From contig JAIPFP010000002.1 of assembly GCA_021736575.1 (NCBI GenBank), positions 6,433 through 70,432 of the forward strand: a stretch of 64,000 bases of DNA, given 5' to 3'. Position numbers and translations under genes: made by a program. Below the pieces are notes generated by a model. That model saw nothing but the letters and a program-made list of their open reading frames with translations, had not been told where the DNA came from and made no database searches. This DNA is from Pirellula sp. Its GTDB lineage: Bacteria > Planctomycetota > Planctomycetia > Pirellulales > Pirellulaceae. Below, one piece after another: positions 8,101 to 55,919 of this stretch (positions are counted from its first letter, which is position 1; each line of letters begins with the position of its first letter).

Positions 8101-11100
8101 AAGGATTGGGCTTGTTGGCAGCCCGATAGCATTCTTCACTTCTTCGATGTTCGCTCGGTTTTCCAACGATGAAAAAGACGAATCGATAGCTTGAGATAGC
8201 GCTCTCAGATAGAAGCGACCATTCGGTCCATCGACGAACAACGGATCGCCGGCTGCAAGCAGGATTGGGAACGATTCGCTGCTGCCAACCGATGCTGGGG
8301 TTACCGTCGTCGCATTGCTCTGATAAAGGTTTGCACCGAGAATGGTTCCGCCCAAACTTGGCGCTCCCACAACGTTGATACCGGTCCCAAAATTGGCGAT
8401 GATATTGTTTAACAGGCTCGGACTGGCCCCCTCGGTGACATTGATCCCGATGTCGCCTCGACGTCCGTAGAGCGTGTTATTGATCACGCGAGCTACCGTC
8501 TGTGGTGGTATGCCAGTGGCTGTAGTCCCTCCCGTGTCACCGCTGATGTTGATGCCACCGGCTAGATTGCCGGAAAGGACATTGTTCATCACCACGACAC
8601 CTGGCGCGACGTTGGACGAATTTAATGTAACAAGGTTTCGAACGACTCCAGGATAAGGCCGATTTCCGGTATTTGCCGCGATTTGCGTTTGAGACTGCGG
8701 AGCAGCATCGATGTTCAAACCAAAGCCAGAGGATCTCGATATCGAATTGGAAGAAACGATAAATTGTCCTTGATCGCGCCTGATATTGGCATCGCCAAGA
8801 TCTTCTCCAAACGCAGACTCGGATCCAAAGCTCACGAGGGTCAACGGAACTCCGCCAGCCGAAAACAATGCTGAGCTCGCATTGCCAAGCTCATCGTTGG
8901 CAACAGGACCATGCAAGTCGATCGCGATAGCCCGTCCGTTGGCCGGCCTATCGGCAGTACCAACCTTCATGTCGCCATTGGTCGATGCGGTAATTTTGAT
9001 GACGGCTTGTGCTGCAGTGCTGTTGATCGCATCGCGGATCTTTCTTGCGATTTGCTCGCGAGTCTCACTCGGCAAAATTGTGATAGGGACATTGCCCGGT
9101 GTTGTTCCGGCTGCACGGTCCGCAGCCGAAGTCGCAACGTCGAACTCGAACGTAGCAGTATTCACGCCATCGCTGAGTTTGAAGGTCGCTCCATCCGCAA
9201 TAGCGCTTGGCGCGTTGAAAATCAACCGGCTCGATTTGGTCAGCCGATCATTGGTGTCATACGTTCGCCCCAGTGGCGGTGGTGGAAAGGAATCCAAACG
9301 CAGTGCCGTACCGGCGGTCGTCCCGTAGTCAGCCGCTTCTCGAATTTCGAGCTGGTATGTACCACCCTCGATTTCATCAATCGGTTCGCCAGGAACCGCC
9401 GAACCACCTGTCAGTTGATAACCACCTGTCGGATTGAAGGTCGGGGCCGCCGATGGCGTGGCACCGATGACTTTTTCGCCTCGTTCCGCAAACCCGATGA
9501 CAATATCGTCAATGTGAACGCTGCCCGCTTTGTTGCTCTGCGTTCGTAGACCTGCACCAAAGAATCCCCCTTCTGTAAAGTCATCTCCGGCTCGTGCGGT
9601 CGTCGCACCTAGCGGTCCAGGATTCGTAACGATCATTCCAGTGCCGTGCAGCAGAATCACGTTACCACGGGTTCGATAGACGCTCGTATTTGCCGTCTGT
9701 CCCGCGACGTTCAATGCGCCGGCCAAGGATACAACGATACTATCTCGAACTTGGATGGCGGTCATCGCGTTGGTCACAGGAACCGCCGTTCGACCAGCCA
9801 CAACACCTGGCCGCCCAATGATGATGGCTGGGTCGGCACCGAGTATGGAATACGTTCCGGCTGCCGGAAGACCAGATACATTCAAGATATCGGGTGATTG
9901 AGTACTGGTTGCCACCGTTCGACCATCGAGCGTCAGCGCGGTTCGGACACTATTCGCAAGCTGCGTTGGCGTGAAGTTACTTGCAAAGCCAATCTCTCTT
10001 GCAGCGGGTGCACCAGTGAGCTTGAAGGTGTACAGAGTTCCATTGATCGAAATCTGGTCCCCATCGACAACGCTGGCACCGCTTGGAAGCTGCATAACCA
10101 GTCCAAGATCAAATTCGAACGTGGTGCCGGCCACGACAAACGTATTGCCGTCCGTCAATCGATCGCCTGGTATTGCTACCAATTCTTGGCCACCTCGCAA
10201 TGGATCACCCGTGCGGAAATCGCCGCCCGTATTGAACTCGAATCGAATGCGAACATCTCGCTGTCCAGCGAGTGCCCCCATATTGATTCGGGCCTGTCTC
10301 CAACCCGCATTGTCGAATACTTCCGAAGAAATTCGCGTCCTACCAAACGCATCCTGATTTTGCGAAATCGAAATATCGAACTCGTCCTGTCCAGCCATGT
10401 CGGTATAGCTACGGTTATCGATGGAATTGTTGGTACCGAGCAGCACCCAATTCCCACTCTCACCGGCGCCATACACACGGAACGTATCCAGCGCAGGTCG
10501 ATTGTCACCCAAAGCCGTACCATCGTTGTTGGCCGCGCTGTTTTGAGTCGGCAACGTGTAATTGAAATACAACATCGGTTGATCATCGGCGGAATAGCTC
10601 CGCAGATCGATCAGATCGCTTTCCAAAGCACCCATGGCACCACCAGCCGCTGCGACATTGTCGCCGGCTGCATTCGACACATAGGTGTTGTAAATCCCGG
10701 ACCAAATTCCGGGCTGTTTGTTAGGACTATTCGGATCCGCAAATCCAAATTTCGCGGAGCGATTGCCGTTGAAAGTGTCCCGCGAATTGTTGAAGTCGGC
10801 GGGTCGACCGTGACCTGCTGTCCCATTTTCACGATCGCTTGCATGCCATAAATTTACGTCAAGCGATGAGAAGTCGATCCCGGCGATGTTGCCTAATCCG
10901 GTGCCTTGGACGAACCTTTCTCCGCGCGGAAAAATGGGCTGAAGCGTTCCAGCGGGGCCAAGTGTAGGCGAGGCAAACGGATTAAATGCATAGATGCGTC
11001 CCGCAGCCGTGATACCGAACAGTAAATTTGCGTAGCGACCACCCTCGACGTTGCGTGGACCCGCAGTCATACCAGTAAAATTGATCGCAGCATTGGTTTG

Positions 11101-18082: not shown

Positions 18083-21000
18083 CTATTGGCCAAAGACTTC
18101 CGCAAAGAACGAATCTAACGATTCGTGGTCTTCTTTGGAGCTCTTGGCAGTTGAAAGTACAGCCAGTTGTTCGGCCTCGTCTTCGGCGTCATTTCCAAAG
18201 CTTGAGAGGTATTCTCCTAGGCTCGCGCCTTGTGCGGCGATCGCATCCTGTCGTGCCGGTTGTACCGCGTTTTCCATCCGATTACGGGATGGTACGTCCA
18301 CCATAGTTGTACCAGTATTGGGCGTATTTCGCATGACATCCGTGCTCCAAGTCATCGGAGCCCCTAGGTTCCCGCTAACATACGAAACACTCGATCCATC
18401 GCCCTCTCCCTCGCCTCCAGCACTGCCACCACTAGAACGACGGTTGATATAGTTGATAACTTCAAGCACATCCAACGGACTGATGAAATAGTCGCCGTTC
18501 ACGTCCCGATAGGGCGGTGGATCAGGCAGACCAACGATGGAAACAGACGGTTCACCCCGGAAATTCAGGAAATTGATGATCAGCAACACATCGATCGGCG
18601 AAATAAAACCGTCCGCATCCACATCCAACTTCTGAATCGGATTTTGATGCTTCGATGCAGGTGGAGTGGTAATTGTAATCTTAACGGTCGCCTCATTGCT
18701 CACTGCACCTAGCGAATCCACCGCTTGGTATTTGAACGTATCGACCGCACCCACAAGTGTGTTCGAATTTGGAATGTAACTGAAAGTCCCATCCAAGTTG
18801 AGGGTCAATTGGCCCAAAGTCGGTGCGCGAGTCACACGGGCTGTAAACGTGTTCCCCTCAATGTCCCGATCGTTCGCCAAGACGCCGTCGTCATAGATTG
18901 ACGGTGTCGCAGTACCGCGGGCATCGGTGGTTCGCAACTCGACTCCCTGCGGAGTGAGATAGAACAAGTCGTCTACAGCGCGAGGCGCATCGTTCACAGG
19001 CGAAACCGAAATGTCGAAGCTATCTTCGATGGCATTGCCCGCCTTGTCGACCGCACGTACTGTAATCGTCGCGACTCCAGAAGCATCCGGAACCAAAACG
19101 AGCCTCAACGATCCGTTGACAATCGACGCAGTCACCACATCCGTATTCGAATTGGTCACGGTGAAGGTCAACACATCCCCATTGAGGATCACGTCCGGGT
19201 CGTAGAAGTAAGTCGGTGACAAAACCGTGTCAGGAATGATGGCATCCTCTGCAACACTCAGATTTGGCAACGGTGCAACCAATCGCGGACTGTCGCCAAC
19301 CGGTGCAACGATCAACGTCATCGTATTGGTAACTGTGTTCCCGGCTCGGTCGGTTGCTTCGAAAACAATAATGGCTGTACCGTTTTGGTCGGGCTTGGGC
19401 CGGACGAAGATGTCGTTGGCACCAAACGTCGGTTCAACCAGCGAGCTATTGCTGTTGCTGACAACTTTGTAAGTGAGCTTGTCATCATTAGGAATCACAT
19501 CCGGATCAAAGAAATAATTCGCTAGCGGGAAGGCGCGTTCGGGGTCATCCTCTAACATGTTGACAGTACCAAACTGTGCAACAACACGTGGAGCGTCATC
19601 GACCGCTGTAACCGTAACCGTAACTGTGCCCCGCGATGTCAGCGGATCGGATATACCCTGGCTCGTTCCATTGTCGGTAACAAAGTAAAAGAACCGATCG
19701 ACTCCGTTGAAATCGGGAGCGGGACGATAGGTTACATTACCGTTCGCAAACGAAACCGTTCCGCCAAACTCGCTGGTAGCGACCACACCCGAGAATGTGA
19801 GTGTTTGTGCGTTGGGTCCAGTGATTTCCGATGGTGGTCCGGCAACATCCCCCGCAAGAAAGAACGAGCTCGGCTTCGTATCCGTTCCATCCTCGATCAT
19901 CGTGAATGACTTCGGAGTCGTAATCGGTGCATCATTCTTGTCTCGCACGGTGACCGTGACGGTACGTGTCACGCTTAACGGATCCGCTAGATCACCTGTC
20001 ACTCCATTGTCGGTCAACGTGAATGCGAACGTATCGACGCCACTAAAATCGGCCCGTGGCGTATAGATCACACCTCCGTTCAAAAGGCTCACACTGCCAC
20101 CCTGGCCAGTGACATTGTTAGGCAATGAAACCCGCAGCGTCTGTTCGAACTCGTTGGCTGGCCCCGCCAAAGCTTGGCTCAACGTGACAATGTTCGGTTG
20201 GGTCAGGATCAACGGCACATCTTCATCCGTGTCGCGGGAGAAGTTCGATGCCGTTGGCACGTCGTTCACTGGTCGAATGGTGATGGTGACGGTTGTCGGA
20301 ACCAGCGATTCCAAAATTTCATTCTCGTTCACATCAAGATTGACGTAATTCAGATAAACAAATGTGTCCGTGCCAAAGTAGTCCGCCGTTGGCTGGTAGC
20401 TAAATGTCCCATCCGAGTTGAATACAAAGGAATTGCCAGACACATGTTGTGGAGGGGTCAAGAGTCTCGCAAATAGCGCCCGTCCATCCGGACTGGTATC
20501 GTTAGCCAGCACGCCGTCGTCGACCACAAATCCCGGAGTCGCTTGGCCCGTCGGATCCGACGTAACAAGTCCGCCTACCTGATCCTCATTCATGGCATAG
20601 GCATCCGACACGCCGATGGGTGGAACACCGGGCACTACCCGAACTAAGTAATCCTCAACTTCCCCATCCAAAGCTAAACCGGTAGGCAAGAGTTCGCCTG
20701 CGGAGGAAGTCCTGAACCGAGCGAACGAATTGGTGCTAACTGCCGGTACTGGCGAGGTGGTTGGAACCCGGATGCTGAACGTCTGCGTTAGCGACGAGGG
20801 ATCGAAAATAACTCCATTCAAGACATTCTCGCCTGGATCGGTCCAGTCCCCGTCTGCATTGAAGTCGATCCATCCATCTACAATACCGGGTGCCGACAAG
20901 GTCACCGTTACAAGTGTGTCGACATTGCGATTGAAAAGAGGTTTGTCCAGTCCTTGGAACTTGAATGTAACCCCATCGTCTCCACTGTCGCCATCGGCCT

Positions 21001-24000
21001 TAGGAGTCGGATTCCCATCTTGCTCCGCACTGATATCGGTACCAAGCCGCAAAGCCGTTGCATTGGAAACATGGCGTGCTCCATCAAATGCTTGCGAGGT
21101 TGGGTAACGCCCCGGAGTTGTCGAAACAGGATCTGGTGCATCGCCGAAGTCCAACTGCGCACCTGGCATCAAGATCGAAAACTGCGTTTCATTATTGATT
21201 CGATTGGGTTGTAAATCATTCCCTGCCAAATCCTCGATGGCTCGTTGGAAGAAATTCGGGACCGGCGAATCGATGGAGATCGCATTCTCAACAAACAGCG
21301 TGCTACCGCCGCGTTTCTTAGCAAACAAGGATGTGTTGGGTGCCGAGTTGATCGCCTTGATAATCGAATCTCGCATCAATTCTGCCGTGAAAACAACATC
21401 CTGCAGGAACAGGATCGGTGTCGCACCACCCGGTACGCCTGAAACCTCAATGCTAGTCCCGTTGTTCACCAAGGTGTACTGCGGATTATCCAATAACTTG
21501 AGCACCGAGTCCGAAATAACCTGTGTTTGCAATCCAAGTCCCGATGCTTCAATCGCGGCCTTCATCGCGTCAATGACTTCTCTTCTCGTGCTCGACGAGC
21601 GGAAGAATATGGGCACGCGACCAGCCGTAAAACCATTGTTGTTCGTTGCGTTCTCGAACTCAAAGGTCACTGTTGTCGTCCCATTGTTGATCGAGAAGTA
21701 CTGTCCATCGTCGACGCTGCTACGCGACTGCCTAATCGCCGAAGTGTTGCTGACAACCGTAGAATCTGGAACCGGGCCCAGATCTATGAAAGGCCCTCCA
21801 ACGCTCTTCGCAACAAGTCCGAGACCGGACGCGTTGATGACATTGATCATTGCCTGCACGATATTCGGAACCGTGCTTGAGGGGTTGAACCGGACCACAA
21901 CACTGTTCGGCACAGTCGACCCGCTGGAGTTGCCATCAAACTCGATCAGCAACGTCACGCCATTGTTAGTCAAGGTTAGAAAAGTATTGTCCTGTAAATC
22001 TTGTCCAACAATCGGTGGCACCTCTAACAACAACGAACCGACGATCGTCAACGTCGTGTTGGTCGCCACGCCTGGCTTTCCAAACAATCCGATACTCGGA
22101 GCGGTCGTTGCATTGATGGAATGCTGTTCCGTTCCACCGATGGCGATGTTGCCGTCGTCAATGTGCTTTGGGTCCAAATTCAAGCCAGCGTTCTTGATGG
22201 TCAGCGCGACCAAAGCCCCCAACTGATCTTGGGTGTCCGTCTGTTTGAACGAAATGGGGATGTTGCCAGGCTTTACATTCGTGTCCGGATCAAGCGTAAA
22301 TTCAAACGTCTTGGTGATGCCGCCAAAAGAGATTGTAAATTGTTCGCCGTCAGCAATCGTGCGTGAAACTCCCACTAGGCTTAGTTTGGAATTCAAAAGA
22401 TTAACGGAGCCCGAGGGTGACAGGCCAAGATGCACCACGTCTGAACCCATGATTCGCGGCTGCAATTTAAGACCACTAGCGACAATCGATTGAACCAAAA
22501 GATTGGCAATGTCGTTTGCGTTGCTGGCTTGCGAGGAATCAATTCGGAAGTTGGCTGGATCGAACCTACCATCGGTATCAAATTCAAACACAATCGCGAC
22601 GCGACCGTCACTGATCGAAACGAGCTGTCCATCCGTAACACCTCCCACGCCCGCACCCAAATTCGGAACCAGCAACCCATCCGTTTGAATCGGTTGTGTC
22701 AGGGCGGAAAGAGCGGTGTTGACGCGTGTGTTCGCAGCCGCACCCAGGTAAACATTGCCACCTGGTTGGACGACAGGCTTGACCGCGAGCGCGGTCTTTT
22801 GAATGGCTGCCGCAATCGTATTGGCAATTTCCTCACGCGAGGATGTTTTGCTGAAAACGACGGGGATATTTCCAGCGAGGAAATTGGAATTGTTGTCCAG
22901 TTCGAAGGTCACTTGGAGGGTGCCCTGCGTAATCGTGAATCGATCGCCATCCACAACACCGCCAGCTTGTCCACCTGCCAAGGGCACCTGTATTTTCAGA
23001 CCCTGCGGAATCTGCAATCGGTAGCCACTTTCGAACTCGAAGTTGACATTGCCACCCAGGCTATCTCGAATAACCATGCGATCGCCATCCTGGATCGTGT
23101 CGCCGGATGGAGCGACCAAAACGAAGCGGTCCTTGTTGTTCAAAAGAATATCATAGACGCGATCGTTCTTCCAAACACCCGCCAGTGGAGTGAGGATGAT
23201 TTCGTTGCGTGTCGTATCGTACGCAAATCGGTAATCGATCCCCTCCACAAGTAATCGTCCGTTTTCGAACAAGACCACCGAAGCTCCAACAGCTCGAACG
23301 CCACTTACCTCCGGAGTTACTACCGAATCATCGTTGACACCAATGCCTCCGAAGGTCTCATCGGAATCACGTAATTGAATGCGAAACTCAGAATAAACAC
23401 CACTCGTCAGCTGGACAACCGACACGGCGGAATCTTTATCAACACCGAGGGCATCATTGTCCAGAGGATTGACCAACACGGCCGTTGGGCCAAGGAAGTC
23501 TGCCCGATCCAATGCTCCGCGATCCTTAAACACATTTTGCCCCAAACCGCTTGGTGGCGACACGGTTGGATCATCCACTCTCAATTGGCCAACAGCATCA
23601 CGGTCTGGCGCGATCACCGGCGAAACCGAAATCCCAACGGATTTCTTGACGTTCGCAAACAAAGGTCGCTCAGGCAACGAATCGATACCGCTATCGATCA
23701 AGATCGAACCAGCTGCTGGCAGGTATTGCCCCGCCTGTGCGTTGACAAAAAGTCTCGCACTGTCCGCCACGTCGAAATTGAAGTCCAACGCAGTATTCGG
23801 AATGTTCGTCGGGACTTTCTCGATTCCAGTGGTGAACCGTACTTTGGAAGCAGCCGGTTCATCAAACTGGTAGACCGATCCGCCCAATATCACTTCGCTC
23901 GGCTTCGAAACGACCGTCTCACCGTCGAAGCCATAAGGTGCAAAACCACCTGTGAACGGCCCAACCACTGGATAACGTCGCGATTCCTCTTTGATGACTG

Positions 24001-27000
24001 GAGATTGAAGGTTAAAGAAGACGTTGTTCAGAATCGTGGGACTCGCCCCGCGTGACGCGAGAATTCCCGTTTCTGGCAACAGCGAATCCAAGTTATTCCC
24101 TTCGTTTTCATCTGGACTAACGATCACAGTATTGTTGCCCGTAATCCAGGCCGCGTTCTTGACCACCACGAACTTTTCCGAAGTTCCATCGCCAATCGAC
24201 GTAAGAGAGATCGGAGTTGTCGACAATCGATCGTGACCAAACCCCATATTGGACAAGCTGGTCACACTGAGGAACGGAGGCAAATTGTTGACGACAGTCG
24301 TCGTGAAAGTGATGAACCCATCCAGGCGTCGCGTGAATACCCGAAGGCCCTGGTTGACTTCCGTATAGTCTCCACCCAATTGCCGACGAATTTCACGAGG
24401 GCTGACCGCATCGGTCCCTAGTTCGTCCAGTTGACCCAAACGTTCAATCAGTGGAGCCTTATCGCCCACAATGGAATTGAAATCAGCATCCACAATGTTC
24501 GCTAAGCCGCCCATTGCACGAGCATGCACAGCCGGCAACGGACTGGCCGTTCCAAACTGGCCATTCGGCAATCGCTGTGCATTGCTGACGGCTGGACCGC
24601 CTGCTAGCCCCTCATTGATCGCCTTAGCGATCGCTCGGGCAACGTCCGGGAATCGCCAGCCCGGGTTGAGATTAATTGGGATGTTACCCTGTGCAACTTG
24701 GCCACCGATACCGAAGGTGAATTCGAAGGTGCGCCCAGTGGTCACTTGGCCGTCAAGATCCGGCACGCCATGGATCGTAAATGTTTCACCCGCTCGGTAT
24801 GCAGATGCATCTTCTGCAGTGATTACGAAGTCCTGCTGGTGCCGAGCACTCAGCGTAACTCGATAGGCACCGGTCGTTTTTCCAGCCTTTCGATTGGCTA
24901 ACGAAAGTGGATCATAAGTTGAGTTACCGACCGAACTCACGGCAGCATAGTAAACCCCCGGTGCAGTCGCGGTGAAGTCTGCGTAGGAATCCAAGCTCAC
25001 TAACTCGCCTGGTGCAGCATCGTTATCACTTGCCAATAACGAAATTCCGTTGGCATTCAAGAACGTTTGCGGAACGCCACGGCTATCGAAAATTTGCAAG
25101 ACTGAATCAAGTCCACTGTTGGCCGAATCGATGTCGATAATCGCTCGTTCGCCAATTCCAAGTTTGAATTGATAGATGTCAACATCCGAGGTTGACAGCA
25201 GTTTGCCTAGCCCAGCGTTCAACACGAAAACCGACTTGGCCGCATTCAAACGCGCCCCAGAAAGGACAACGCCGGTCAAGTTAGGCAGTGGATGCGCACC
25301 AAGCAAGACAGCCGACTTCAACTGAGCAACGCTTGCCCCCGGAAGGGAACTTGCCAAGAGCGCAACTACGCCAGCCACGTGCGGCGACGCCATGGATGTT
25401 CCGCTCTGGAGTCCATAACCACCACCGAGGGTCGTGCTCAAGATGTTCACACCGGGAGCTGCGATATCGACAGTCGTCACGCCAAAATTCGAGAAGTTCG
25501 CCAATTGATCTCGGTCATCGGTGGCTGCAACCGCAATAATTCCATCGAGCGGGAAACCAACCGGATAAAATGGTTGCTGATCGTTATTTGTCCCGTTGTT
25601 TCCAGCCGCCGCCACGAATGCAATGCCGACGTCAATGGTCGCTTGAACTGCATCTTGGAAGGCTTGCGAAAATCCTGGTCCGCCGTAACTGTTATTGCTG
25701 ACAACAATATTGATGCCATACTTGGTCTTCATCGTAACCAAATAGTTCAAGGATTCGATCGCGGCCAAGAACGAAACGCTCGGACCAGCAGCACCGATCT
25801 TGAGCGCCATGATCTTGGAGTTCCAGTTGACCCCGGTGACTCCTCTACCGTTGTTCCCAACCGCCGCCGTCGTACCCGCGACGTGCGTGCCGTGACCGTT
25901 CTGATCCAACGGATCCGAATCGCCCGAGAATGGGTCAATACCGTAAATGTCATCGATGTAACCGTTGGCATCGTTGTCAATTCCATCCCCAGCGATCTCG
26001 CCTGGGTTGACCCACATGTTGGCACGCAGATCCGTGTGATTGTAGTCAACTCCTGAGTCGATAATTGCAATCACAGTCTGAGTCGAACCAGTGACCAAAT
26101 CCCATGCCTCTGGCGCATCGATGTCTGCATCGATTTTTCCGCCCGTTTGACCTTGATTATCGTACTGCCACTGTTGCGGGTACTGTGGATCGTTTGGTAC
26201 ACGATCAAACTGCATATCCATATCCGGCTCGGCGTACCGAATTTCTGGCATCGCGACTAATCGCTGCAGTCCATCTACTGTTAAAACATTCTTTGTTTTT
26301 CGCACCAGCAAGGCATTAATAAAATCATAACGCTGAATGATTTCAAGCCCTTCGGCCGCCATGATCGCTGCTTGACGCTCAGGGGTCACCCCATCCTCAA
26401 ATCTCATGACGAACCGATTGGAACTGAGATTTGCTAACGTGAAGTTGAAACTGCCGCCCGTTCCTCCGCCGCCGTTCCCTGTCGCCGGATTGTTTCCGGC
26501 GATACCCACGCCAGAGTCACCGATGATTCCAACATCGCTATAGAACAACGGGTTGTGCGAGGTTCCTTGCCACGTTTGCACTGCTGTGTCCAAAGTGTCG
26601 TTGGTTTCGGCTGCCGCCGCTCCACCGTTGAAACTTGCGCGACCGTCCTTGCCGATGATCGTGTTGTTCACGATTCGGGTTTGTGGTTGCGGCGATTCGC
26701 CCAATGGAAGTCGACGGATATCTAATCTGTTTGAAAATCCGCCAGGTCCATCCACGAACTCCAGCGCCGTGGGGCCTTCTAGATACAAAGATGCTCGATT
26801 GAAATACTCGGGATAAAAATTTCCCGCGCTCGATGGCGGAGCGCCTGGATCAGGACCAAGCAAACTCTGAGCAATGGTCGCTTGAATGATCTGAGTGGTT
26901 CCATTGGAAACAAAGATGCTTCCCAAGATAGAATCTCGCAAGGCATGCATTGTCTCAAATGCATTGGTCGCAAATGGCTGGCAGTTGGTGCAAGTCAGTC

Positions 27001-30000
27001 GTTGATAGAAGCTTCCACCCAGGTCGCGATACCATGCGATGGTACTGTCAAGGGCAACTCCGTTGCCCTCCACTTGAGTGCTACCTCCAGCGCCGGCTGG
27101 ACCTCCAGCAAGATCGTCGAATTCGAATCGCAACCGTGTTCGGTCGGAATCGATGACCAGCACATCACCATCATCGATATAAGTGCCAAAGTGCGTGACT
27201 GGCGCATCGCTGTTGACAAGTGGGTTGTTATCTGCGGTCGGGATCAGTTGTGGCGTGATCATCCATATTGGATTCTCCCCGTTGATCTTGACTCCTCCGA
27301 GTCCACCTTCTTCAAGAACGTTGTTTTGAATCACAACACCCGATACTAAACCACCTGGAACGCTATTGTTGAGCGCGGGTAGATTGCGCACCGCTTGAGT
27401 CCCTGCGAGCGAGGGCTTCGCTTGAATGTCGTCGACTAAGTTAAATCCGCCGAAATTGCCCCCGTTAAAGCCAAACGTGTTGCCCGCGTCTTCCGTGTCG
27501 CGAGGATCCGCCATCCTTGCCGCTGGCTCGGACCAAATCGCATAGTCGCGAGAATTGCGAATGAAGCTATTCTGAACGATCAACTGCCCTTGATCACGCG
27601 TGACGTTGCGGTCGCCGATGCCTGAATACGAAATCACTTGAACCATGCCAGCTGGCTTGGCGGACGTGACCTGCTTGACGGCCGCGTTGCCAATCAAGTT
27701 GATACGCGTATCTCTGCCCGTTGTCCCGGTTGCAATGCCACTGGATGTGGCTGCGCTGACTCGCAATCGCGATTGAACGTTCGGGTTGTTGATTGCGTCG
27801 CGAATCGCTCTCGCCACTACGTAAGCCGGATCCGCAGGTGTGAATCGAACCGGTACATTTCCGGACGCTACGACGTTGTCAACAGAAAACTCAAAACCAA
27901 TTCGCGTACCACCGTCGGAAATCTCAAAGACATCTCCATCCGTTAGATTGGTACCAGCGGGTGCAACAATCGAAATCTGTTCCGTAAATCGATCGTTGGT
28001 ATCAAAAGTCTTGGTGAGCGTTGGTGTCCCACTTGAATTGGACGTAAAGAAATTTTCCCCAAGTCGTACTTCCAACTGATAGGCACCGCGCGTAATCGTG
28101 GTGGACGGAACCGGCACGTTCACAAACGTTGGATTCGGCTCGCCTGAGAAGATTCGGGACCCATCGGCCAGTTCCATGGTTACCGCCCCGATTCGCACGC
28201 GACCATTGGCGTCACCGCGTGAACGGAAAACGACAGACAGCCCAGCTTGGCCAGCATACTGGGACACATCAATGGAGGCTCGTTGTGGTGAGCCGGCAGT
28301 CAGCAAAACGACGTTCCCTGGTCGATTGACATTGTCGGTCGTCGCAATTCTTTGCAGGCCGAACGGCGACTGCATAAATACGTCCAACTGTCCTGTAAAG
28401 ACTTCGTAGTCAAACGCCACTCTCGGTCCATCGGCAAACGTATAAGTCGCCAAGGAGAACGTCCGAGTTGAATTCTGCGACAATGGGCCCGGTGGAGTCG
28501 CATTGAAATCACCAAACAAGTTCATGCCAGGTGACAAAACAGGTTCGTCTGGCGTTCCCACTCTCTCACCGCGTTCGGCGAAACCGATAATGACATTGGT
28601 GATCGTTGTCGCAGCTTGTGTGCTGCGGAAAATCATAGTCAGCCCATCTTGTCCCGCGAACTGATTGAGAGGGATCTTCAGCGAATTAGTCCCTGTTTGA
28701 AGCGTTCCTCCAAATTGGGATCTCGCGACCTCAGTCTCGACTCCCGCTGAATCCCTAATGGAAATGCTGAAGTTCCCACCTGGGAAATCATAGTCGATGT
28801 AGGTTGCCGGTTGGTCGGCAGCGGAATAAGCACCCAGGTTAAAGACCTTGGAGATCAACTCACCGGTCGGTCCAATGCTCGCATTTGGCTGCGGCAAAAA
28901 GTTACGGATCACTGGCGGCAACGCGGTGGTCGCCCCAGCTACGAAATCCTCGTCGACAATTCGGAGTATCGAGCTGATGGGCTCCGTATTGAATTGGTTG
29001 ATGATCCGAGTGCGCGGTTGATACCCTGCCGACGAAATCGCGACCAAATACGTCCCTTCGGCCAGCGCCACAGGTCCGATCGAGGCATCTTTCGTTCCCA
29101 AGGAACCACGCGAAAGATCCGAAGCGTCGTTGACCAACAACGGTCGTGCTTGATCGTCGGCGATATTGCTCGAATCACCTGAGTAGATCAACCGATACTG
29201 TTTTCCAAATCGAAGCGAATTTTCTTCGATGAAAACATTGATCGACGTATCGGGTCGGTTCAGTCCATCCGCGTAATCCATATCAAACATGACCGAAGCA
29301 AAACCTCCGCTCATGCTGCCGACGATATCTTGCTGACGAATATCAAGTCGATAAAAATCCACATCGGTATTTGTACTGAGCGAGCCTGCTAGGCTGATTC
29401 CGCCATTGGCAGTGTTCAATAGATTGCCAATGTACTGCGGACGATTGCCGACCGTGAGTTGGCCAACCGCCGTTCCATTGTATGCCGTCAGTTCTGCATT
29501 GCTGTTGGTGCGGAAATTGTTCGCTGAGTCGACATACTCAACACTCTCATCTTCGGCCGCTTCTCCAATCAAAGGGGAAGACGTTGGCAACCCTCGCAGG
29601 TGCACTCCGTTGGTGGAGTAACGAATATCCGTATAACTAACTAACGAGCCGGCAAATTCTTGTTGTTCTCGCAGTCGAAGCTGAGCTTGATAGGGTCCAG
29701 AACTCAGTCCAGCCTTTTCGTTAGCGATGTCGGTTCCCGCACTGCGCAATCGGAAATAGAATGTTCCGCGAGCACCAATCGAGCCCGGCAAAACGATCCG
29801 CATCCCCGCGTCTCGAACATTCGTCGTCCCATCTTCCTTAACCAACCCGCTTCGATTCGTTCGCACATTCGTGGTACGCACGGGCAACGGATTGACACTG
29901 CTCGGATCGATCAGCGGAGACCGGACGAGCAACGCTGGAACAAGCGTTTCTTCGGTGCTGTTATCGCTGCGGGCCAAAAGAGTGCCATTCGCATCAAGGA

Positions 30001-33000
30001 GCTCGATAACCGTGTCTAGATTTGTCTTGGTATAGTCGACATCCAGCCAAACCTCAGTCCCTGCTTCGGCCGAAAAACTGTAGATATCCACGTCCTCATC
30101 TTGGCTCAGCACACCCTGGATCACGAAGCCCAGCCGGAGGTTTTCGCTACCCGACGAGGCGGTGGCAGCCAAGCTTCCAAGGCCTTGCGCCGTGCGAATC
30201 GAACCATTCGTGCCAGGGGCCGCAGCCGAAATATCCTCGGTTTCCAATACGAGTCCAACATTGCGATCGTTGGAGTACTGATCAAGCAATACACCGCGCC
30301 AATCGGAACTGCTTGGAACAGAACCAATACCATCATTATTCGTGTCGTTTTGCGATCGTCCGTCCGGACGCAAGCCTGCTCCGACGGTATCATCCTTCAA
30401 GCTCGTCAAGATCACCGGGAAGCCTGGTTGGCCCACCAGGTGCAACGTGCCGCCGACTCGATTGTTGCCCGGCATCAACTGGCCATTGCCGGTGATTCCC
30501 GCGCCCATGTTGCGATTGTAGTTCGAACCATATCCATCGAACTTGACGACCAGCGATTCATCGGTGGCGCTCTGCAAGCGCAAGCCCCCCTCGTGCTGAT
30601 AGTCCCCAACAAAGATCCCATCATACACAGCGTGAACAATGTCGGTATCGTCCCATACGCTGGCGTTGGTCAAGGTATCTCCGCGGATCTTCAAACCGTT
30701 AAGGCCGTTATTCGCGAATCGGTTTTCGCGAATCAATGGACCTTGGTTCGTAGAATAAATTGGATTGATGTCAACATCTCCAGTCTGCCTTCCCGAATCC
30801 GGCATCACATGATCATTCATGCTGTTCGCATCGATATCAATCGCAGCGCCGATGTTGTTCCGGAACACATTGCCAAGGATCGTTGGCTGCGTCCCACGGA
30901 CGAATATCGTAGCTGGCTCGTTGAGCAATCGACCGAATCGAGTTCCCGGCCCCTGACCACCAAAACCATCGGCGTTGTTTTCGAAAACCGAATGCGCGAT
31001 GCGTGCATCGGCTTGTTGAAGTTCAATTGTATTAAAGGCTCGGAACGTACCGTCCAACCTGGTCACACCTCCAGCGAAAGCAAAAGTCGAATGGTCGACG
31101 CTCAGAGATGCAGTTGGCGCGACGTAAATGCCACCCCAATCGCGTGCTGCCGGAAGAGTGCTCGTCCCGTTATTGTTGGTGTCAAACGTACCGCCAGCAC
31201 CGTACCGATCATCCAACTTGCTAGTAAAGATAATCGGCAAATCCTCGGTACCTTCGGCGATGATGCGAGTACCAAAGGTAGCCTCAATACGCGAGCCTTC
31301 CAACTTCAAAACGCTACCCGGATCGATCACCAAGGATGAATTTAAACGAGGTCGCTTGACAGCCAGTGACTCAGGCGAAAGCGCGGCACCCGTAACGAAA
31401 CCATTGTCCGTCAGCGAGGCGAGGTTGGACATCGTTGCGTTCGGCAACTCGGCGATCAACGAATAAGGTCCCGAGCCATTGTTCGCGCTTCGATAGACGC
31501 GTCGGGCCACATAACCCGGAATAGGTTGCGGCAGTTGCGTTAACACAACCGATTGACCAATTGGTATGACAATGTCGTTGGTCGGATTGGATGCAAGCCC
31601 TTCTTGTCCAGCCGCGTCGACCATTACGAAGCGGTAATTGTATCGGCCGGCGGCCAATGTCCCACCCGCGGAATTTGCAAGCAAAACCCCAGACACATCC
31701 AAGCGATCACGAGCCAGCGTGCCCCCCAAGGACTTGCCAATATCCAAGTATGTCGATGTTGCCTTGTCCAGCAACGCAATCAATTCGTACGCTCCCGTTA
31801 AGCTTACACTGCTGCGGTACAATCGGCGAGTCACAAAATCGCCTGTTGCAGACGGCAAACTGGATAACGCAATCGCGGTCTGATTCCCAACCAGAGTGAT
31901 GCTTCCCGTGGCATTGGAAGGAACGCTCTCGCTTCCATTTCGGTCGACAAACGTGAGCTTATAATTATAGATGTCTGGCAAAAGCGTTCCGCCGACCCCA
32001 GGTGCCACGGAGACCAAATCCGAAGCGGGCGTGAAACCGTCAAGAATCGAACCACCTGGCGCACCAGAGAGAATCAAGTTATCGGCAAAAACATGAACGA
32101 TGTCGATGTCGTCGAATCGCCCCGGAACAGTAAGTGTCTTCGGTGACCCGTCTACGGGCGTATCGACGCGGATGAACAACCCATTGAGCGAGTTATTGGT
32201 CAACGTGTTATGGTGGATATCTGGTCCCACTCGATCATAATCGCTGGTAAACGCGCCGCTCAGTTGGAATCTCGGTTCGTTGAAATTCGTTTCTTCGAAA
32301 CTGTTTGGAAGCGCGCTCATCGCAGCATCGGCGCTACGTGTGATTCGATTGTAAGTAATCGTTGGACGCGTTTCGAACATTTGGATTGCGTTGATGGTTT
32401 GAGCAACCCCGTCAACCACAACGCTGCCGCCGCCGTATCGTATGTCGGCATTATTGACATACTGAAGGAAAATCCCTTCGTCCTCACCATCGCGCCGACC
32501 CGAAGCGACGTCGACATCCCGTCGAAACGAAATCCCACCCCAATCCCCTGCACCGGGGATCGTTCTTGGTCCATACGTATCGAGGCCAATCGTTTCATCC
32601 AGCCAAGAGGTGAAGTAAACGCTTCCGGGGGCAACACCACCCGTAGCTTGCTTAAGCATGTTTCCGCTAGCGTCGAGCAAAGACGGCGCACCCAGAACTT
32701 GCAATGCAGCCCCGGATCGATTGACGTTCAAGCTAGAGCTACCGACACCCAGCCTCGCACTTCTAATTTTGAAAATTGCCCCCGCATCGATCATCGTGGT
32801 GACCCCCATCGGGACATCCATCGTCAAACCATCTGCGAGAACGGCTCCCGGCAAGAGACCAATTCCAATCTCGTACGCAACGTTGTCGCCAATTGTTTCC
32901 AGTCTGCCGTCGCTACCTCCGTTGCCGGCGATTCGCACGATATCACCTGGCAAGGCCGAGGCAAACGCGTTGGGGACTCCAGCCCCAGCAATATTGTTAA

Positions 33001-36000
33001 ACGGACGTTGCAAGCTGCCGTCCGCGTTCGGACCTGCGGATTTGTCAACGAAAATGTTCTTGCCGACCACGTCAATCAAACGCAACGCGGGATCGACGGT
33101 TATCGATCGCTCGCCTTGCAATACGATGCCGCTGCCATTCACTGTTGCACTGACTCCCAACGCGGCTTGAGAGGCAATCGCACTGGCTAACGCGTTCGCC
33201 AAATCAGTCGAAGTATTGCCGTTCACGTAGGGGATTCGGATGCGTCCAGGACTGACGAAGTTGTCGCTCGAGAACTCGAAAACGCGTGTAACTCCATTCG
33301 AGCCCACGACGGTAACGATCCTGCTCTCGATTGCCGCAGATCCTCCCGCGTTGAAGTTCAGTGTTCGATTGAGCGGACGGGTTTCGAACCAGAAATTATA
33401 GGTTCCACCCGCGACTCCATCCCCGTCGCCATCGAATCCGACCGATGGGTCGCTCTGCGCGTTCGTCGAAACGTCTTGAATCGCGTCATTGACGCCGACT
33501 TGCCCACGGAACGTGAGCCGCATTTCGTATTTGCCTTGCGATTGACCGCCGAAACCGGTCCCAGGAATGGCCGCGTTGTAGTCGTCATTGCCGCTAGCGC
33601 TTACACCAACAAAATAGACCCCGCTGGTAAGCGATACTTTGATCAGCGAATCGCGGCTGAAGTAGTCATCGTTCCGTGAAACCAAATCCATCTTTCCGCC
33701 CGAAAGAATGATCGGATTTTGGGTCAACAGATTTCCGCCAACCTTGGTGCTACCCATTCCCTTGGCCAATTTGACTGTGACCAAATGGCTTGCCTCGCTC
33801 GAACTCTGAATCGCCGCGATGATCTCATCGACCGTGCTCTCACTGCCAGGCGTCGCGTTCAGATCGATCCCGATCGCATTCGGATACACCGAAATCGATG
33901 GTGCTCCATCTCGCACGCTTTGAGTCAGGTAAATTTGAAACTGATTTCCCTGGCTACCTGGTCGTACTGCGGTGAACTCAACCGACAATAGATTGCTTAC
34001 ACCAAAGTTGGTAGAACCCGTTGCTTGTGTTTGTTTGTACAGCTGCAGATTCGTGTCCAACTCGCTGCTGTTGGCGAGACGCTGCGCGTACGTTTCAAGT
34101 GTGAACAAGCCCGCTCGACTGGGGTCACCCAAATCCACTTCGAAACGATACAAATCGATATCCGAACCGTCCGGTCGATGCAAGTACTGACCGTGGAGGA
34201 CGTCTTGATTGCCTGGAAAAATTGGCTCAAAACGTTCTTCACTTGCAACCAGTTGTGCGTCGTTCGGATTGATCGTTGGACCGGTACCAGCAAAGAACGT
34301 CGGATCCAATCGCATGAGCGTACTTTGAGGTAGATCGCCTGCATGCTCAAGGCCGAGAACCATGCCAATGCATGCCATCGTCGATCGGAAATAATCCTCT
34401 CCGTACGAATTATTCCATGCGCGAGTGGCTTCCAAAATGATCAATGAGCTGGCAAACGTCTTGTCGATCCGCACACCGAAATTAATCGTATCGTTGAGTC
34501 CGACTTGAATCGCTTCCGTCTGAATCTGAGTGGCTGCGACCGGCGTCAACCCACTCAACGAGCCCAACGCGATCGTCACACCTTGATCCGCCGTTTCCAC
34601 GAACTGAACTCCGATCTTGTAAGCCCATAAATTGAGGGCTTCACGCGTTCGGCCTTTTTGCTCTTCGGTGATCGAGTTAACTAAGGGATTGTTTAAGTTG
34701 TCGTTCGAGTAAATCGTCTTGAAGTTGTAATAGATCGTTGTGATTCCAGCCGTCGGATCTGCTCCGAAGGCTGCGTTGACGTGATTCTCGAAACTGCCTT
34801 GTAGATTCTGAGGCAACGTTCGATGAGCCGGGTCATCACTGGCACCCTCCAAGTCGAGCGCGAACGGCTCTGCATCGATCGAGGACGATAGAATCAGACT
34901 GCTCTGAAGCAGATTCGTAGACCCAATCAACCCCAAATTGGTTGCTGTGTTGAACGAACTCCCCAGCCCAAACAAAGTGACCGGCGAATAGCTCAGCAAT
35001 CGATCGCCAATAACCGTCAACGGGTCACTGCCTGGCTCGTAGTCGATGCTCACCAAACTTGTTGCGGCCGGCACGAGCAGGATGGCATCCACCACCTCTT
35101 TCGCCGTAACAGTTGACGTCCCTAAATCCACTGTGATCTTACGACCAACGACCGAGACAGCCGGCGAACTTCCATTGAGCGAGTTCACGAACTCGACCTG
35201 TACTCCACTGCCCGCTTCACCGATTTGATTGGCTGTGAATCGAACTTTGACTGCACCTGCCGTGTTGAAATCCGTGATGGCGTTGGCGGCCGCTTCGTTC
35301 CTGGTCGGCGCAAGAGGCTGCGTCTCGCGAGTCCCGATTCGCAAACGGTACGTGACTGGACCAGCACCGGAACCCGGAAGCGTATCCAAGTCGCTAGCAA
35401 AGACAAGAGTTGCCGTGTTGGAGGCTGCATTGTAGCGCACCGAAATGGGCTTGAACGCCGCTCCATCATCCGTGTTTCGGATTGTATCCCTTGTGAAGAT
35501 CAATTGATAGAAATCTGGGTTCTCAACCGATCGTGACGTCGGACGACCTTGAGCGTCATTTTCAACCAACAGCTTTTCTTTGTCGAAGTAGACGACGATG
35601 GTGTCGCGTTGCTGACTCAACTGTCCATTCTGACGCACAACCGGTTGAGGTACGACCGAAATCACTTGCGGTCCGAGATCCAACCGGAAATCAATCGTAT
35701 CGGATCGGGTATTGGGCTTCGACGGAATCAGCAGGTTTCCTGGCAGACCATTCTCACCCACATTTCGCAACCCAACGATACCTAATGTCGGGTCGTCAAA
35801 ACCAAAGACTTCGATGCGATATTGATCATCGATCAAATTCTCTGCGAACCGTACTGTGACTTCGTTCTCGTCTGGATTTTCGCCAACACTTCGTGCGCCC
35901 GGTTGGACGATGATGTCGTTGGTTTGCGTTAATCGAATGGGCGAGTAAGAGGTAGGATTCCCAGAGCTCAGCAGCGTAGCCTCCAGCCCCCCGTTTATCT

Positions 36001-49078: not shown

Positions 49079-49087
49079 ACTTGAAAC

Positions 49088-55858: not shown

Positions 55859-55919
55859 GATTCGTCGTGCGTGCGGACGCCGACTCGATTTTTTGGCGTT
55901 TACCACAAGCTGCGGATCA

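Follow-up and report, generated by a model that had tools for sequence, protein, structure and literature searches.

Two giant genes, A and B, lie on the minus strand of the window, the whole 64,000-nucleotide stretch of Pirellula sp. DNA that was analysed (Table 1). By translation and Pfam, the product of gene A has an export-type motif of the planctomycete kind at its N-terminus, along with a degenerate M10-like domain, FEF modules and beta-helix-like repeats, and the Pfam scan of the whole gene places cadherin-like/Big_9 repeats, GEVED and a dockerin at the C-terminus. On this predicted layout, the product is a giant secreted or surface protein. For the part of gene B that lies outside the window, an ortholog of ~6398 aa (L046), 92.8% identical to gene B, was used as a proxy.

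Table 1. Features of genes A and B in and around the protease-containing segment.
Feature	Position (nt)	Strand	Residues	Description and basis
Gene A	18083..36553	minus	6156 aa	one ORF; ORF list, translation
Gene B	ATG 17973, leaves window at left end	minus	5991 aa visible	
Separate FEF-type insert, one turn upstream	26693..27259	minus	A 3099-3287	B without it
N-side repeat turn	26636..26692	minus	A 3288-3306	PQPQTRIVNNTIIGKDGRA; matches B PPQTVARVINNTLYGRRGD; sub-threshold Beta_helix match across splice
N-terminal part of split PPC	26495..26614	minus	A ~3314-3353	ETNDTLDTAVQTWQGTSHNPLFYSDVGIIGDSGVGIAG; ortholog contiguity
Gly/Asn-rich linker, start of nested unit	26420..26494	minus	A ~3354-3378	NNPATGNGGGGTGGSFNFTLANLSS
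Subtilisin-type N-terminal prodomain	26207..26419	minus	A ~3379-3449	AlphaFold, Foldseek, weak Pfam
S8A subtilisin catalytic domain	25211..26206	minus	A ~3450-3781	Pfam, phmmer, Foldseek
Triad codon, Asp	26057-26059	minus	D3499	
Triad codon, His	25892-25894	minus	H3554	
Triad codon, Ser	25394-25396	minus	S3720	
C-terminal part of split PPC	24899..25210	minus	A ~3782-3885	from LGKLLSTSDVDIYQFKLGIGERAIIDID; Pfam, pLDDT 80-90
FEF module	24608..24898	minus	A ~3886-3982	...GETFTIHGVPDLDGQVTTGRTFEFTFG...ARAIAKAINEG; HMM from modules within A
Closing stretch of older insert	24080..24607	minus	A 3983-4158	~176 aa
C-side repeat turn	24014..24079	minus	A 4159-4180	ETGILASRGASPTILNNVFFNL; matches B DIGINVTEGASPSLLNNIIANF
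Uninterrupted equivalent site in gene B	8341..8520	minus	B ~3152-3211	PPQTVARVINNTLYGRRGDIGINVTEGASPSLLNNIIANF; alignment of 14 B-type loci

Comparison of the two products by blastp pairs A2776-3112 with B2809-3168 and A4161-4795 with B3174-3768. Gene A holds an extra ~852 residues (aa 3307-4158) where gene B has two short repeat turns side by side, and this segment and the FEF-type insert at aa 3099-3287 are two inserts at adjacent turns that set A apart from B. The flanks quoted in the preliminary description, PQPQTRIVNNTIIGKDGRA at aa 3288-3306 and ETGILASRGASPTILNNVFFN from aa 4159 (nt 24079 downwards), lie where it had placed them. Its main observation, that a complete S8 protease, prodomain included, stands in mid-chain in A and is absent from the same site in B, is borne out by Pfam, blastp and fold prediction. 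Neither tblastn nor Pfam finds an S8 domain in B as far as it is visible, and the suggestion that one might lie in the unseen part was checked by way of L046, from which the remainder of B would be ~400 aa made up of cadherin-like repeats, a dockerin and a tail, without S8.

The turns on either side of the inserts are putatively of beta-helix type. The Beta_helix family (PF13229) matches below its cut-off of 25.9 bits, with E 2.8e-4 in B and E 1.3e-3 in A when the inserts are spliced out in silico, and the match in spliced A spans both splice points. The assignment is drawn only from these sub-threshold Pfam matches and from the NNxI repeat pattern of the flanks. From NCBIfam, TIGR03804 gives a non-significant E of 0.57, and among PDB sequences the best hit of a profile built from 15 sequences of the uninterrupted B-type site is a GH110 enzyme at a likewise non-significant E of 0.49. 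The protein-database homologs retrieved for structure prediction were fragments of up to ~1700 aa only, giving shallow alignments. The AlphaFold model of A 3035-4230 (50 sequences) has a mean pLDDT of 59 and is confident only for the prodomain, the S8 domain and the C-terminal PPC part; the flanks, the FEF insert and the tail fall below 50, so that the model is uninformative on the beta-helix and on closure of the split PPC. For an S8-less ortholog, P0125 (17 sequences), mean pLDDT is 38.5 and only the PPC, at 65-80, is usable.

The catalytic domain is matched by Peptidase_S8 (PF00082) over aa 3492-3753 when Pfam is run on the insert, with E 6.8e-49 and 167.2 bits against a cut-off of 21.8. 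The earlier assignment of D3499, H3554 and S3720 as the catalytic triad proved exact, as these residues fall in canonical subtilisin motifs (IIDSGVDY, NGHGTHVA and GTSMASPH, respectively) in the order Asp-His-Ser. The oxyanion-hole motif SNNSYGG begins at aa 3619, and triad and oxyanion motifs are conserved in the aligned orthologs that carry S8. AlphaFold predicts a subtilisin alpha/beta fold for the domain with pLDDT of ~85-95. The domain is matched to deseasin MCP-01 (3VV3) by phmmer with E 2.9e-96 and by Foldseek with a TM-score of 0.89 and 49% identity, and the TM-score to both subtilisin BPN' and thermitase is 0.86. The P-domain (PF01483), a mark of the kexin and proprotein convertase group S8B, has no Pfam match in the insert, and the best relatives belong to S8A. 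The NCBIfam subtilase equivalogs (mycosin, dentilisin PrtP, PatA/G and EprS) all score far below cut-off, with mycosin at 102 bits versus 279. From its conserved motifs and predicted fold, the embedded S8A protease is complete and apparently working. In public annotation, fragments of gene A carry just the label "S8 family serine peptidase", and the giant protein around the domain is hidden from view.

The prodomain lies directly N-terminal to the catalytic domain and is docked on it in the model. AlphaFold predicts a beta-alpha-beta-beta-alpha-beta fold (model residues 342-414, pLDDT 79-97), and Foldseek superposes prodomain and catalytic domain together on unautoprocessed pro-subtilisin E (3WHI) and pro-Tk-subtilisin (2E1P) over 409-461 columns. 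The preliminary description had named an I9-like propeptide; a prodomain fold is indeed present by AlphaFold and Foldseek, but Inhibitor_I9 itself (PF05922) has no match in the insert at E up to 10. Weak matches were obtained to the prodomain models PF22148 (Fervidolysin_NPro-like; E 0.056, 14.3 bits versus a cut-off of 21) and PF16361 (E 0.04), and PF22148 is recorded without the weak mark for a homologous unit in the protein P0008. The mature deseasin chain of 3VV3 can be aligned from aa ~3453, and an autocleavage site is predicted near F3449/D3450 (AEPDMDMQF before the cut, DRVPNDPQ after it). That autocleavage occurs at the prodomain junction can reasonably be inferred from subtilase biology.

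The PPC domain (PF04151) is matched at aa 3790-3874 with E 1.5e-5 and 26.2 bits versus a cut-off of 25.9 when the isolated insert is the query, and at 22.7-23.9 bits, under the cut-off, in longer query pieces. Profile positions 1-70 align from D3790. This PPC is not one contiguous domain C-terminal to the peptidase, since its EPNDT...IGDG start precedes the prodomain and S8 domain and its remainder follows them; the part ETNDTLDTAVQTWQGTSHNPLFYSDVGIIGDSGVGIAG corresponds to EPNDT...A...xIGDG, with which PPC domains canonically begin. Nine S8-less orthologs carry the region unbroken, as ...NDTxxxAxQTWQGTxHNPLxYxxxGxIGDxxxxxxxxxDVDxYQFKLGxGE..., and in the model of an S8-lacking ortholog the N-terminal PPC part is predicted as a strand and the loop is flanked by predicted strands. 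A search of the PDB by sequence with the spliced PPC gave no significant match. The closest stand-alone S8-PPC proteases have a contiguous EPNDT...IGDG......DVDLF after the S8 domain. Simple fusion of such a stand-alone S8-PPC gene is ruled out as the origin of the arrangement in gene A, where the PPC already begins ahead of the prodomain.

Among 27 A-type Pirellulaceae loci that are readable at this site, 18 (17 and the window) have the S8 domain and nine do not. The nine lack exactly the Gly-linker, prodomain and S8 (aa ~3354-3781) and keep the rest of gene A and, where visible, the downstream giant gene. Because these loci retain an intact PPC, FEF module and tail, the linker-prodomain-S8 unit is nested in the PPC loop between the 'xIGDG' and 'DVDxYQF' strands, and the PPC is part of an older insert. 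The FEF module at aa ~3886-3982, one of ten in A found with an HMM built from A's own modules, is kept in all A-type orthologs. The stretch at aa 3983-4158 has no Pfam or NCBIfam match and low pLDDT, and is conserved in orthologs with and without S8. Judged by this conservation, PPC, FEF module and the ~176 residues are an older accessory insert that is present in all A-type orthologs. The single I9-S8-PPC cassette between two turns, as first proposed, is therefore not one unit; only linker, prodomain and S8 are variable. The linker NNPATGNGGGGTGGSFNFTLANLSS differs in length and composition between orthologs and has pLDDT <50.

In the 17 loci and the window, the S8 unit occupies the same site, in frame. 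Loci with and without it interleave in the tree with 100% bootstrap, as in the pair of L020 (without) and L023 (with) and in the group of L018 and L019 (both without) and L033 (with), and the interleaving is supported whether the insert itself or the sequence on its left or right side is used. A single loss or a single gain, by which each form would be monophyletic, is ruled out by this bootstrap support, which holds for the mixed groupings on either flank. Clean changes between presence and absence number at least four among the orthologs, and these may be losses, or gains by recombination. The two forms are also not separate paralogs, given that each genome bin has one A-type locus, paired with a B-type locus; A and B stand as a tandem pair on a shared contig in L002/L046, L004/L038, L010/L055, L008/L060 and L014/L064. 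A search at the two junctions for DNA direct repeats, as a mechanism of clean deletion, gave a longest shared word of 7 nt, which is not meaningful, and at the protein level only a two-residue 'AG' repeat is present. Whether a short motif beside the junction reads SD[VI]G or has polar residues instead is perfectly correlated with the presence of S8.

The protease tree broadly tracks that of the host gene, with the major clades common to both and L023 placed differently, and inheritance of the unit with gene A is largely vertical. Relative to L002, dN/dS is 0.108 in the catalytic domain, 0.235 in the prodomain and 0.17 in the 25-codon Gly-rich linker, and 0.04-0.12 in the rest of gene A. These ratios indicate that the unit is under purifying selection. 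In some genomes the paralogous downstream giant has a copy of the same unit too, at a different site: in a 7532-aa counterpart of gene B, an intact M10 metalloprotease domain follows it. In P0008 and P0140, it has the same boundaries, shares 67% identity with A3377-3781, and lies between EPGHRDIPPE(T/S)HL and the M10-like domain, which has an intact HEIGHSLGLGH motif in both proteins and is degenerate in A and B. P0140 begins right after the A ortholog in L031. The prodomain-S8 module is mobile. Because related species have kept, lost or re-sited it, the protease is an optional add-on and not the core of the giant.

With moderate confidence, the unit is best read as an optional, selected protease displayed on a giant scaffold, in which self-cleavage of the prodomain would nick the chain. 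The unit is a self-contained zymogen, in which a deseasin-like S8A domain is preceded by the Gly-rich linker and a prodomain of the subtilisin type. The prodomain would chaperone folding and then be cut in cis near F3449/D3450, such that the 6156-aa chain is nicked into pieces of ~3449 and ~2707 aa. The two pieces would probably remain associated, given that the PPC sheet and the repeat stack are common to both. The freed catalytic domain would then be an extracellular protease that is held on the scaffold and degrades external protein substrates; S8 would not be an obligatory maturation enzyme, and the unit would be a payload that lineages keep or discard. The context is taken as extracellular from the export-type N-terminus, the cadherin-like repeats, the dockerin and the planctomycete neighbourhood. 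A surface-displayed protease had been offered earlier as the alternative to processing, and it now fits the data best.

Processing of the giant or its paralog, the role first suggested, is weakened. A dedicated maturation protease, by which the embedded S8 would cut giant A itself or the neighbouring B at specific sites, is an unlikely competitor. It would be an in-cis version of the maturation of FhaB, a giant beta-helical adhesin on the surface of Bordetella, by the subtilisin-like autotransporter SphB1 (PMC2193847, PMC8263021). The A- and B-type genes are kept in tandem in many genomes, removal of the prodomain would already cut the giant, and for giant Omnitrophota proteins a preprint has proposed that their S8 domains cleave them autocatalytically (West-Roberts et al., bioRxiv 10.1101/2023.11.21.568195). 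The role is made less likely by the repeated loss of the unit: nine of the 27 A-type loci have dispensed with exactly the protease, several independent times, with architecture otherwise unchanged, and at least one S8-less genome still has the tandem partner (L004/L038). In P0140, moreover, the unit adjoins a second, intact protease domain, which looks more like an accumulation of catalytic payloads than like a device tailored to processing.

Somewhat more doubtful is a single turnover, in which S8 would cut only its own prodomain junction and the bound prodomain would then block catalysis, as in PCSK9, which is among the Foldseek matches. The outcome, equally doubtful, would be a two-chain giant, its halves joined by the split PPC and separable by force or signal. 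The prodomain could not diffuse away, since it would stay in the N-terminal fragment, to which part of the PPC sheet belongs, and it is constrained at the dN/dS given above; tethered beside the active site after cleavage, it could keep the enzyme inhibited, which favours this account over a displayed degradative protease. Against it, the substrate-binding and oxyanion residues are conserved as well as the triad, the nearest relatives are ordinary secreted degradative proteases (the deseasin, 49% identical, and the many S8-PPC proteases that stand alone), and S8-less lineages give no sign of another nicking device. It is likewise no more than tentative that strand complementation in the split PPC, along with the repeat stack, would hold the fragments, and that lineages would switch such a joint by gain or loss of the unit. 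If true, the unit would give a bacterial surface fibre a joint that can separate, possibly in response to force or a signal, and would be a functional counterpart, built on a subtilase, of GAIN or SEA autoproteolysis. A decaying, inactive passenger or a chimeric join in one assembly might be suspected from the dispensability of the unit in nine lineages and from some public copies that are broken by frameshifts (L001/L022), but is highly improbable given the same in-frame site in 17 independent loci and the window, the conserved triad and oxyanion motifs in the aligned S8-carrying orthologs, the low dN/dS of the catalytic domain and the confident fold prediction.

Natural controls are available, as there are close orthologs with and without the unit and a paralog that has it elsewhere. 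The series could be used to study the insertion and clean removal of large domains in loops, giant planctomycetal surface proteins as scaffolds for catalytic payloads, and the cutting of giants after synthesis, a question that has been raised for the giant proteins of the PVC group.

Deseasin MCP-01 and related secreted S8A subtilases that bear accessory domains at the C-terminus, among them the many stand-alone prodomain-S8-PPC proteases of Planctomycetota, are alike in having a subtilisin-type prodomain, an association with PPC and an extracellular setting. In gene A, by contrast, the zymogen is not a free protein but begins at residue ~3354 of 6156, the PPC wraps the S8 domain, which is inserted after the first PPC strands, instead of following it, and the unit has no PKD or P-domain. 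The giant Omnitrophota proteins resemble gene A in placing an S8 domain within a PVC-group bacterial protein of several thousand residues, but they belong to another phylum and are much larger, and their S8 domains are said to be N-terminal; the passages of that preprint drawn on here do not mention an S8 nested in a PPC loop, a series of orthologs that have or lack it, or a second site of insertion. SphB1 and NalP are separate autotransporters with a beta-barrel translocator, whereas the protease of gene A is embedded and dispensable among orthologs, and a Pfam scan of all of gene A detected no autotransporter domain. PCSK9 and the GAIN and SEA modules cleave themselves into two chains that stay non-covalently associated; GAIN and SEA differ from the gene A subtilase in chemistry and fold. 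In plant subtilases and C5a peptidase, a PA domain is inserted into the S8 catalytic domain, which is nested too, but there S8 is the host, whereas in gene A S8 and its prodomain are the guest in PPC. Subtilases are usually free enzymes or hosts of other domains; in gene A the whole zymogen is a guest in a small beta-sandwich domain, deep within a giant protein.

A tandem pair of giant genes, A and B, fills the left 36.5 kb of the window on the minus strand. A planctomycete export-type motif forms the N-terminus of both, and their C-termini, where visible, carry cadherin-like/Big_9 repeats, with an additional dockerin in A. The locus falls in the Pirellulaceae by genome-collection scan, nearest to the Pirellula bin L002 (94% protein identity). 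A and B are colinear paralogs, with 25-45% identity within blocks aligned by blastp. The other genes of the window are the usual Planctomycetota set. They include two DUF1501 + PSD1/PSCyt pairs of unknown function at 39559-42719 and 47660-51625 (minus) and a sigma-54 activator at 55893-57014 (plus), with no obvious connection to the giants.

Coordinates of the giant genes and their features
Feature	Residues (aa)	Window position	Strand	Remark
Gene A	6156	36553 to 18083	minus	
Gene B	5991 visible	ATG 17973, still open at base 1	minus	
FEF-type insert, gene A	3099-3287	26693-27259	minus	absent from B
Protease-bearing segment, gene A	3307-4158		minus	segment of the preliminary description
Metzincin (M10/serralysin-like) domain, gene A	~604-841	~34031-34744	minus	zinc motif degenerate
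Metzincin (M10/serralysin-like) domain, gene B	~382-600	~16170-16830	minus	zinc motif degenerate
~55-60 aa module (FEF), gene A	e.g. 4533-4589, 4639-4695, 4733-4791			10 copies
~55-60 aa module (FEF), gene B	e.g. 3496-3550, 3593-3648, 3707-3764			5 copies

The preliminary description placed a subtilisin cassette in A at a site where B is continuous, and this observation is correct, far beyond chance, on the combined evidence of blastp, Pfam, the catalytic triad, and an S8-free B and B ortholog. Blastp aligns A2776-3112 with B2809-3168 and A4161-4795 with B3174-3768, such that about 1050 residues of A stand opposite 6 of B. Reading of the sequence resolves two distinct inserts at neighboring repeat turns of A, the FEF-type insert and the protease-bearing segment, separated by one single turn, PQPQTRIVNNTIIGKDGRA. 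The protease segment is directly followed by ETGILASRGASPTILNNVFFN, and B runs uninterrupted through the equivalent site (...PPQTVARVINNTLYGRRGDIGINVTEGASPSLLNNIIANF...); across orthologs of gene B (B-type loci) the equivalent loop has 3-10 residues, with small insertions now and then. The FEF-type insert, one repeat turn upstream, contains the FEF-like motif LVIDSDRTRLRFEFDDLAGG, with no family match for its ~150 remaining residues, and is kept in all orthologs of gene A (A-type). Within the protease segment, Pfam matches Peptidase_S8 (E 6.8e-49), with D3499, H3554 and S3720 all in textbook motifs, and PPC (26.2 bits, cut-off 25.9). S8 is absent from the visible part of B, and the ~400 residues of B beyond the window, where an S8 domain would have counted against the description, are cadherin-like repeats, a dockerin and a tail as read from L046, a B ortholog of about 6398 aa (92.8% identical). 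Only the wording "beta-helix turns" is less secure. Against Pfam Beta_helix, the B site reaches E 2.8e-4, and A stripped of its two inserts in silico reaches E 1.3e-3 with a match that crosses both splice points; both values are below threshold, other tests for a beta-helix in the flanks gave nothing significant, and both structure models are of low confidence there.

A and B differ by several block indels beyond the protease site alone, given a further length gap at A aa 2552-2776 versus B aa 2000-2809, where B is ~580 aa longer. Both giants also repeat the ~55-60 aa FEF module, DGxxFxIxxGxxxxTFEFDxxG...GNxxI...T...IAxxIxxAI, in tandem arrays and as lone copies within inserts; it has no family in Pfam or NCBIfam.

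Presence of the segment was surveyed by querying 81 related Pirellulaceae loci with pieces of gene A. Among A-type orthologs (54-94% identity), the insert site is readable in 27 loci, window included. The full segment is found in 18, and in nine (L004, L005, L006, L018, L019, L020, L021, L026 and L028) it is ~440 residues shorter, lacking exactly the Gly-rich linker, prodomain and S8 and keeping all else in the alignment. An I9-S8-PPC unit inserted as one cassette, as first proposed, does not fit these short forms, which retain the PPC. They read unbroken as ...E(S/T)NDTxxxAxQTWQGTxHNPLxYxxxGxIGDxxxxxxxxxDVDxYQFKLGxGERxxIDxD.... In the nearest stand-alone S8-PPC proteases the PPC, located after their S8, starts LEPNDTLATATxV...AxIGDGxxxxxxDVDLFxVxLxAGE; the unbroken stretch is therefore a canonical PPC start. 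In gene A the PPC is split, its start (aa ~3314-3353) preceding the prodomain and its remainder (from aa ~3782) coming after S8, so that a loop of the PPC houses the entire protease unit (aa ~3354-3781). In an otherwise poor model of an S8-less ortholog, both loop-flanking segments are predicted strands, in a region of only moderate confidence (pLDDT 65-80). Remoter A-like loci (42% identity; L029, L030, L032, L034 and L075) have the PPC and lack S8, and none of 46 B-type and other paralog loci has S8, up to ±10 kb fetched.

One A ortholog (L001/L022; contig_27568, 276 kb, long-read) is broken into five ORFs by frame changes, and pieces of it are annotated as individual proteins, some of which match Pfam Peptidase_S8. 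Database entries for the A family can therefore conceal that they belong to a giant. The protein homolog search returned nothing longer than ~1700 aa, and giants A and B were not among its matches.

Among solved structures, deseasin MCP-01 has the nearest catalytic domain (3VV3; phmmer E 2.9e-96; Foldseek TM-score 0.89, 49% identity). AlphaFold confidently predicts a beta-alpha-beta-beta-alpha-beta prodomain at A 3376-3448 (pLDDT 79-97), followed by the catalytic domain (about 85-95) and the PPC remainder after S8 (80-90). Given this fold and the Foldseek alignment of prodomain plus catalytic domain to unautoprocessed pro-subtilisin E and pro-Tk-subtilisin over 409-461 columns, the prodomain is modeled as subtilisin type, docked in the usual manner. 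The proposed I9-like propeptide thus stands as a fold, but Inhibitor_I9 itself has no Pfam match to it; PF22148 and PF16361 match weakly. Since the alignment of the mature deseasin chain begins at ~aa 3453 of A, autocleavage is expected near F3449/D3450, between AEPDMDMQF and DRVPNDPQ. Three proteins from the homolog search (P0001-P0003, 1471-1478 aa) carry three tandem prodomain-S8 units per chain, further internal subtilase zymogens whose activation would have to cut the chain.

Bootstrapped neighbor-joining of 1589 ungapped columns of A-type loci joins, at 100% support, L020 (without S8) to L023 (with), and L018 and L019 (without) to L033 (with). Mixed sister groups recur when the left flank of the insert, its right flank and PPC + tail are each analyzed alone, and the major clades of the prodomain-S8 tree agree with those of the remaining gene. 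The most economical reading is a single old acquisition, after which the unit was cleanly lost at least four times. Recombination could instead have produced gains or exchanges: a short motif immediately before the junction tracks S8 perfectly, hydrophobic-(Y/F)-S-D-(V/I)-G with S8 and polar residues without, and the protease and host trees disagree on the position of L023. No DNA repeats accounting for clean deletions were found at the junctions.

Relative to L002, a 94% ortholog of gene A, the catalytic domain has a dN/dS of 0.108 and the prodomain one of 0.235; the remainder of the gene lies at 0.04-0.12, except for the 25-codon Gly-rich linker (0.17). Triad and oxyanion motifs are conserved among the S8-carrying orthologs aligned, and the protease is under selection wherever retained.

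The unit is also found, with identical boundaries and 67% identity to A3377-3781, in the homologous protein P0008 and its full-length relative P0140 (7532 aa), between EPGHRDIPPE(T/S)HL and a metzincin (M10-like) domain. P0140 begins directly after the A ortholog in L031 (L031:15999 onward) and is therefore the positional counterpart of gene B. A protease tree that takes stand-alone enzymes as its outgroups puts the unit of P0008 inside the A-type clade (100% and 97% bootstrap), and at least 13 other B-type loci have the M10 region without a preceding S8. Given this second site, the unit behaves as an insertable module that has landed at least twice in this giant family.

In some related genomes the gene-B counterparts (P0140; also P0008/L082) have ~3000 extra N-terminal residues, and the unit directly before an intact M10 makes each a giant with two protease domains. 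The M10 motif HEIGHSLGLGH, intact in P0140, is kept by homologous giants of related Pirellula; the window has ACIGMVLGLEH in A and HEIGQSLGLDN in B, whose metzincin domains are probably pseudo-metalloproteases.

A scaffold-displayed protease working on external substrates is modestly favored, given that its nearest relatives are ordinary secreted proteases with a degradative role. In subtilases generally, the prodomain helps folding and is then cleaved in cis. By analogy, the prodomain of A would aid S8 folding and be cut off in cis, and this cut would double as a cut in the giant to yield fragments of ~3449 and 2707 aa, which would probably stay together because they share the PPC sheet and repeat stack. 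A protease dedicated to maturing A or B is unlikely, as the unit was lost repeatedly with the rest unchanged, which argues against an obligatory maturation role. A single-turnover nick, after which the tethered prodomain stays inhibitory, is rather doubtful. An inactive remnant or artifact is very improbable; what is established for the unit is a complete zymogen, conserved, selected, loop-nested, optional among orthologs and also present beside another protease domain.

Planctomycetes are rich in uncharacterized giant genes (PMC5177795). Passages of a preprint on giant bacterial proteins of Omnitrophota describe S8 domains and propose that they cut those proteins (bioRxiv 10.1101/2023.11.21.568195), and with SphB1/FhaB a subtilisin-like protease is known to mature a giant beta-helical adhesin (PMC2193847, PMC8263021). 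Gene A differs from both in that its S8 zymogen is a guest domain within a PPC loop, its family naturally includes orthologs that have S8 alongside others that lack it, and a second insertion site exists in its giant family.
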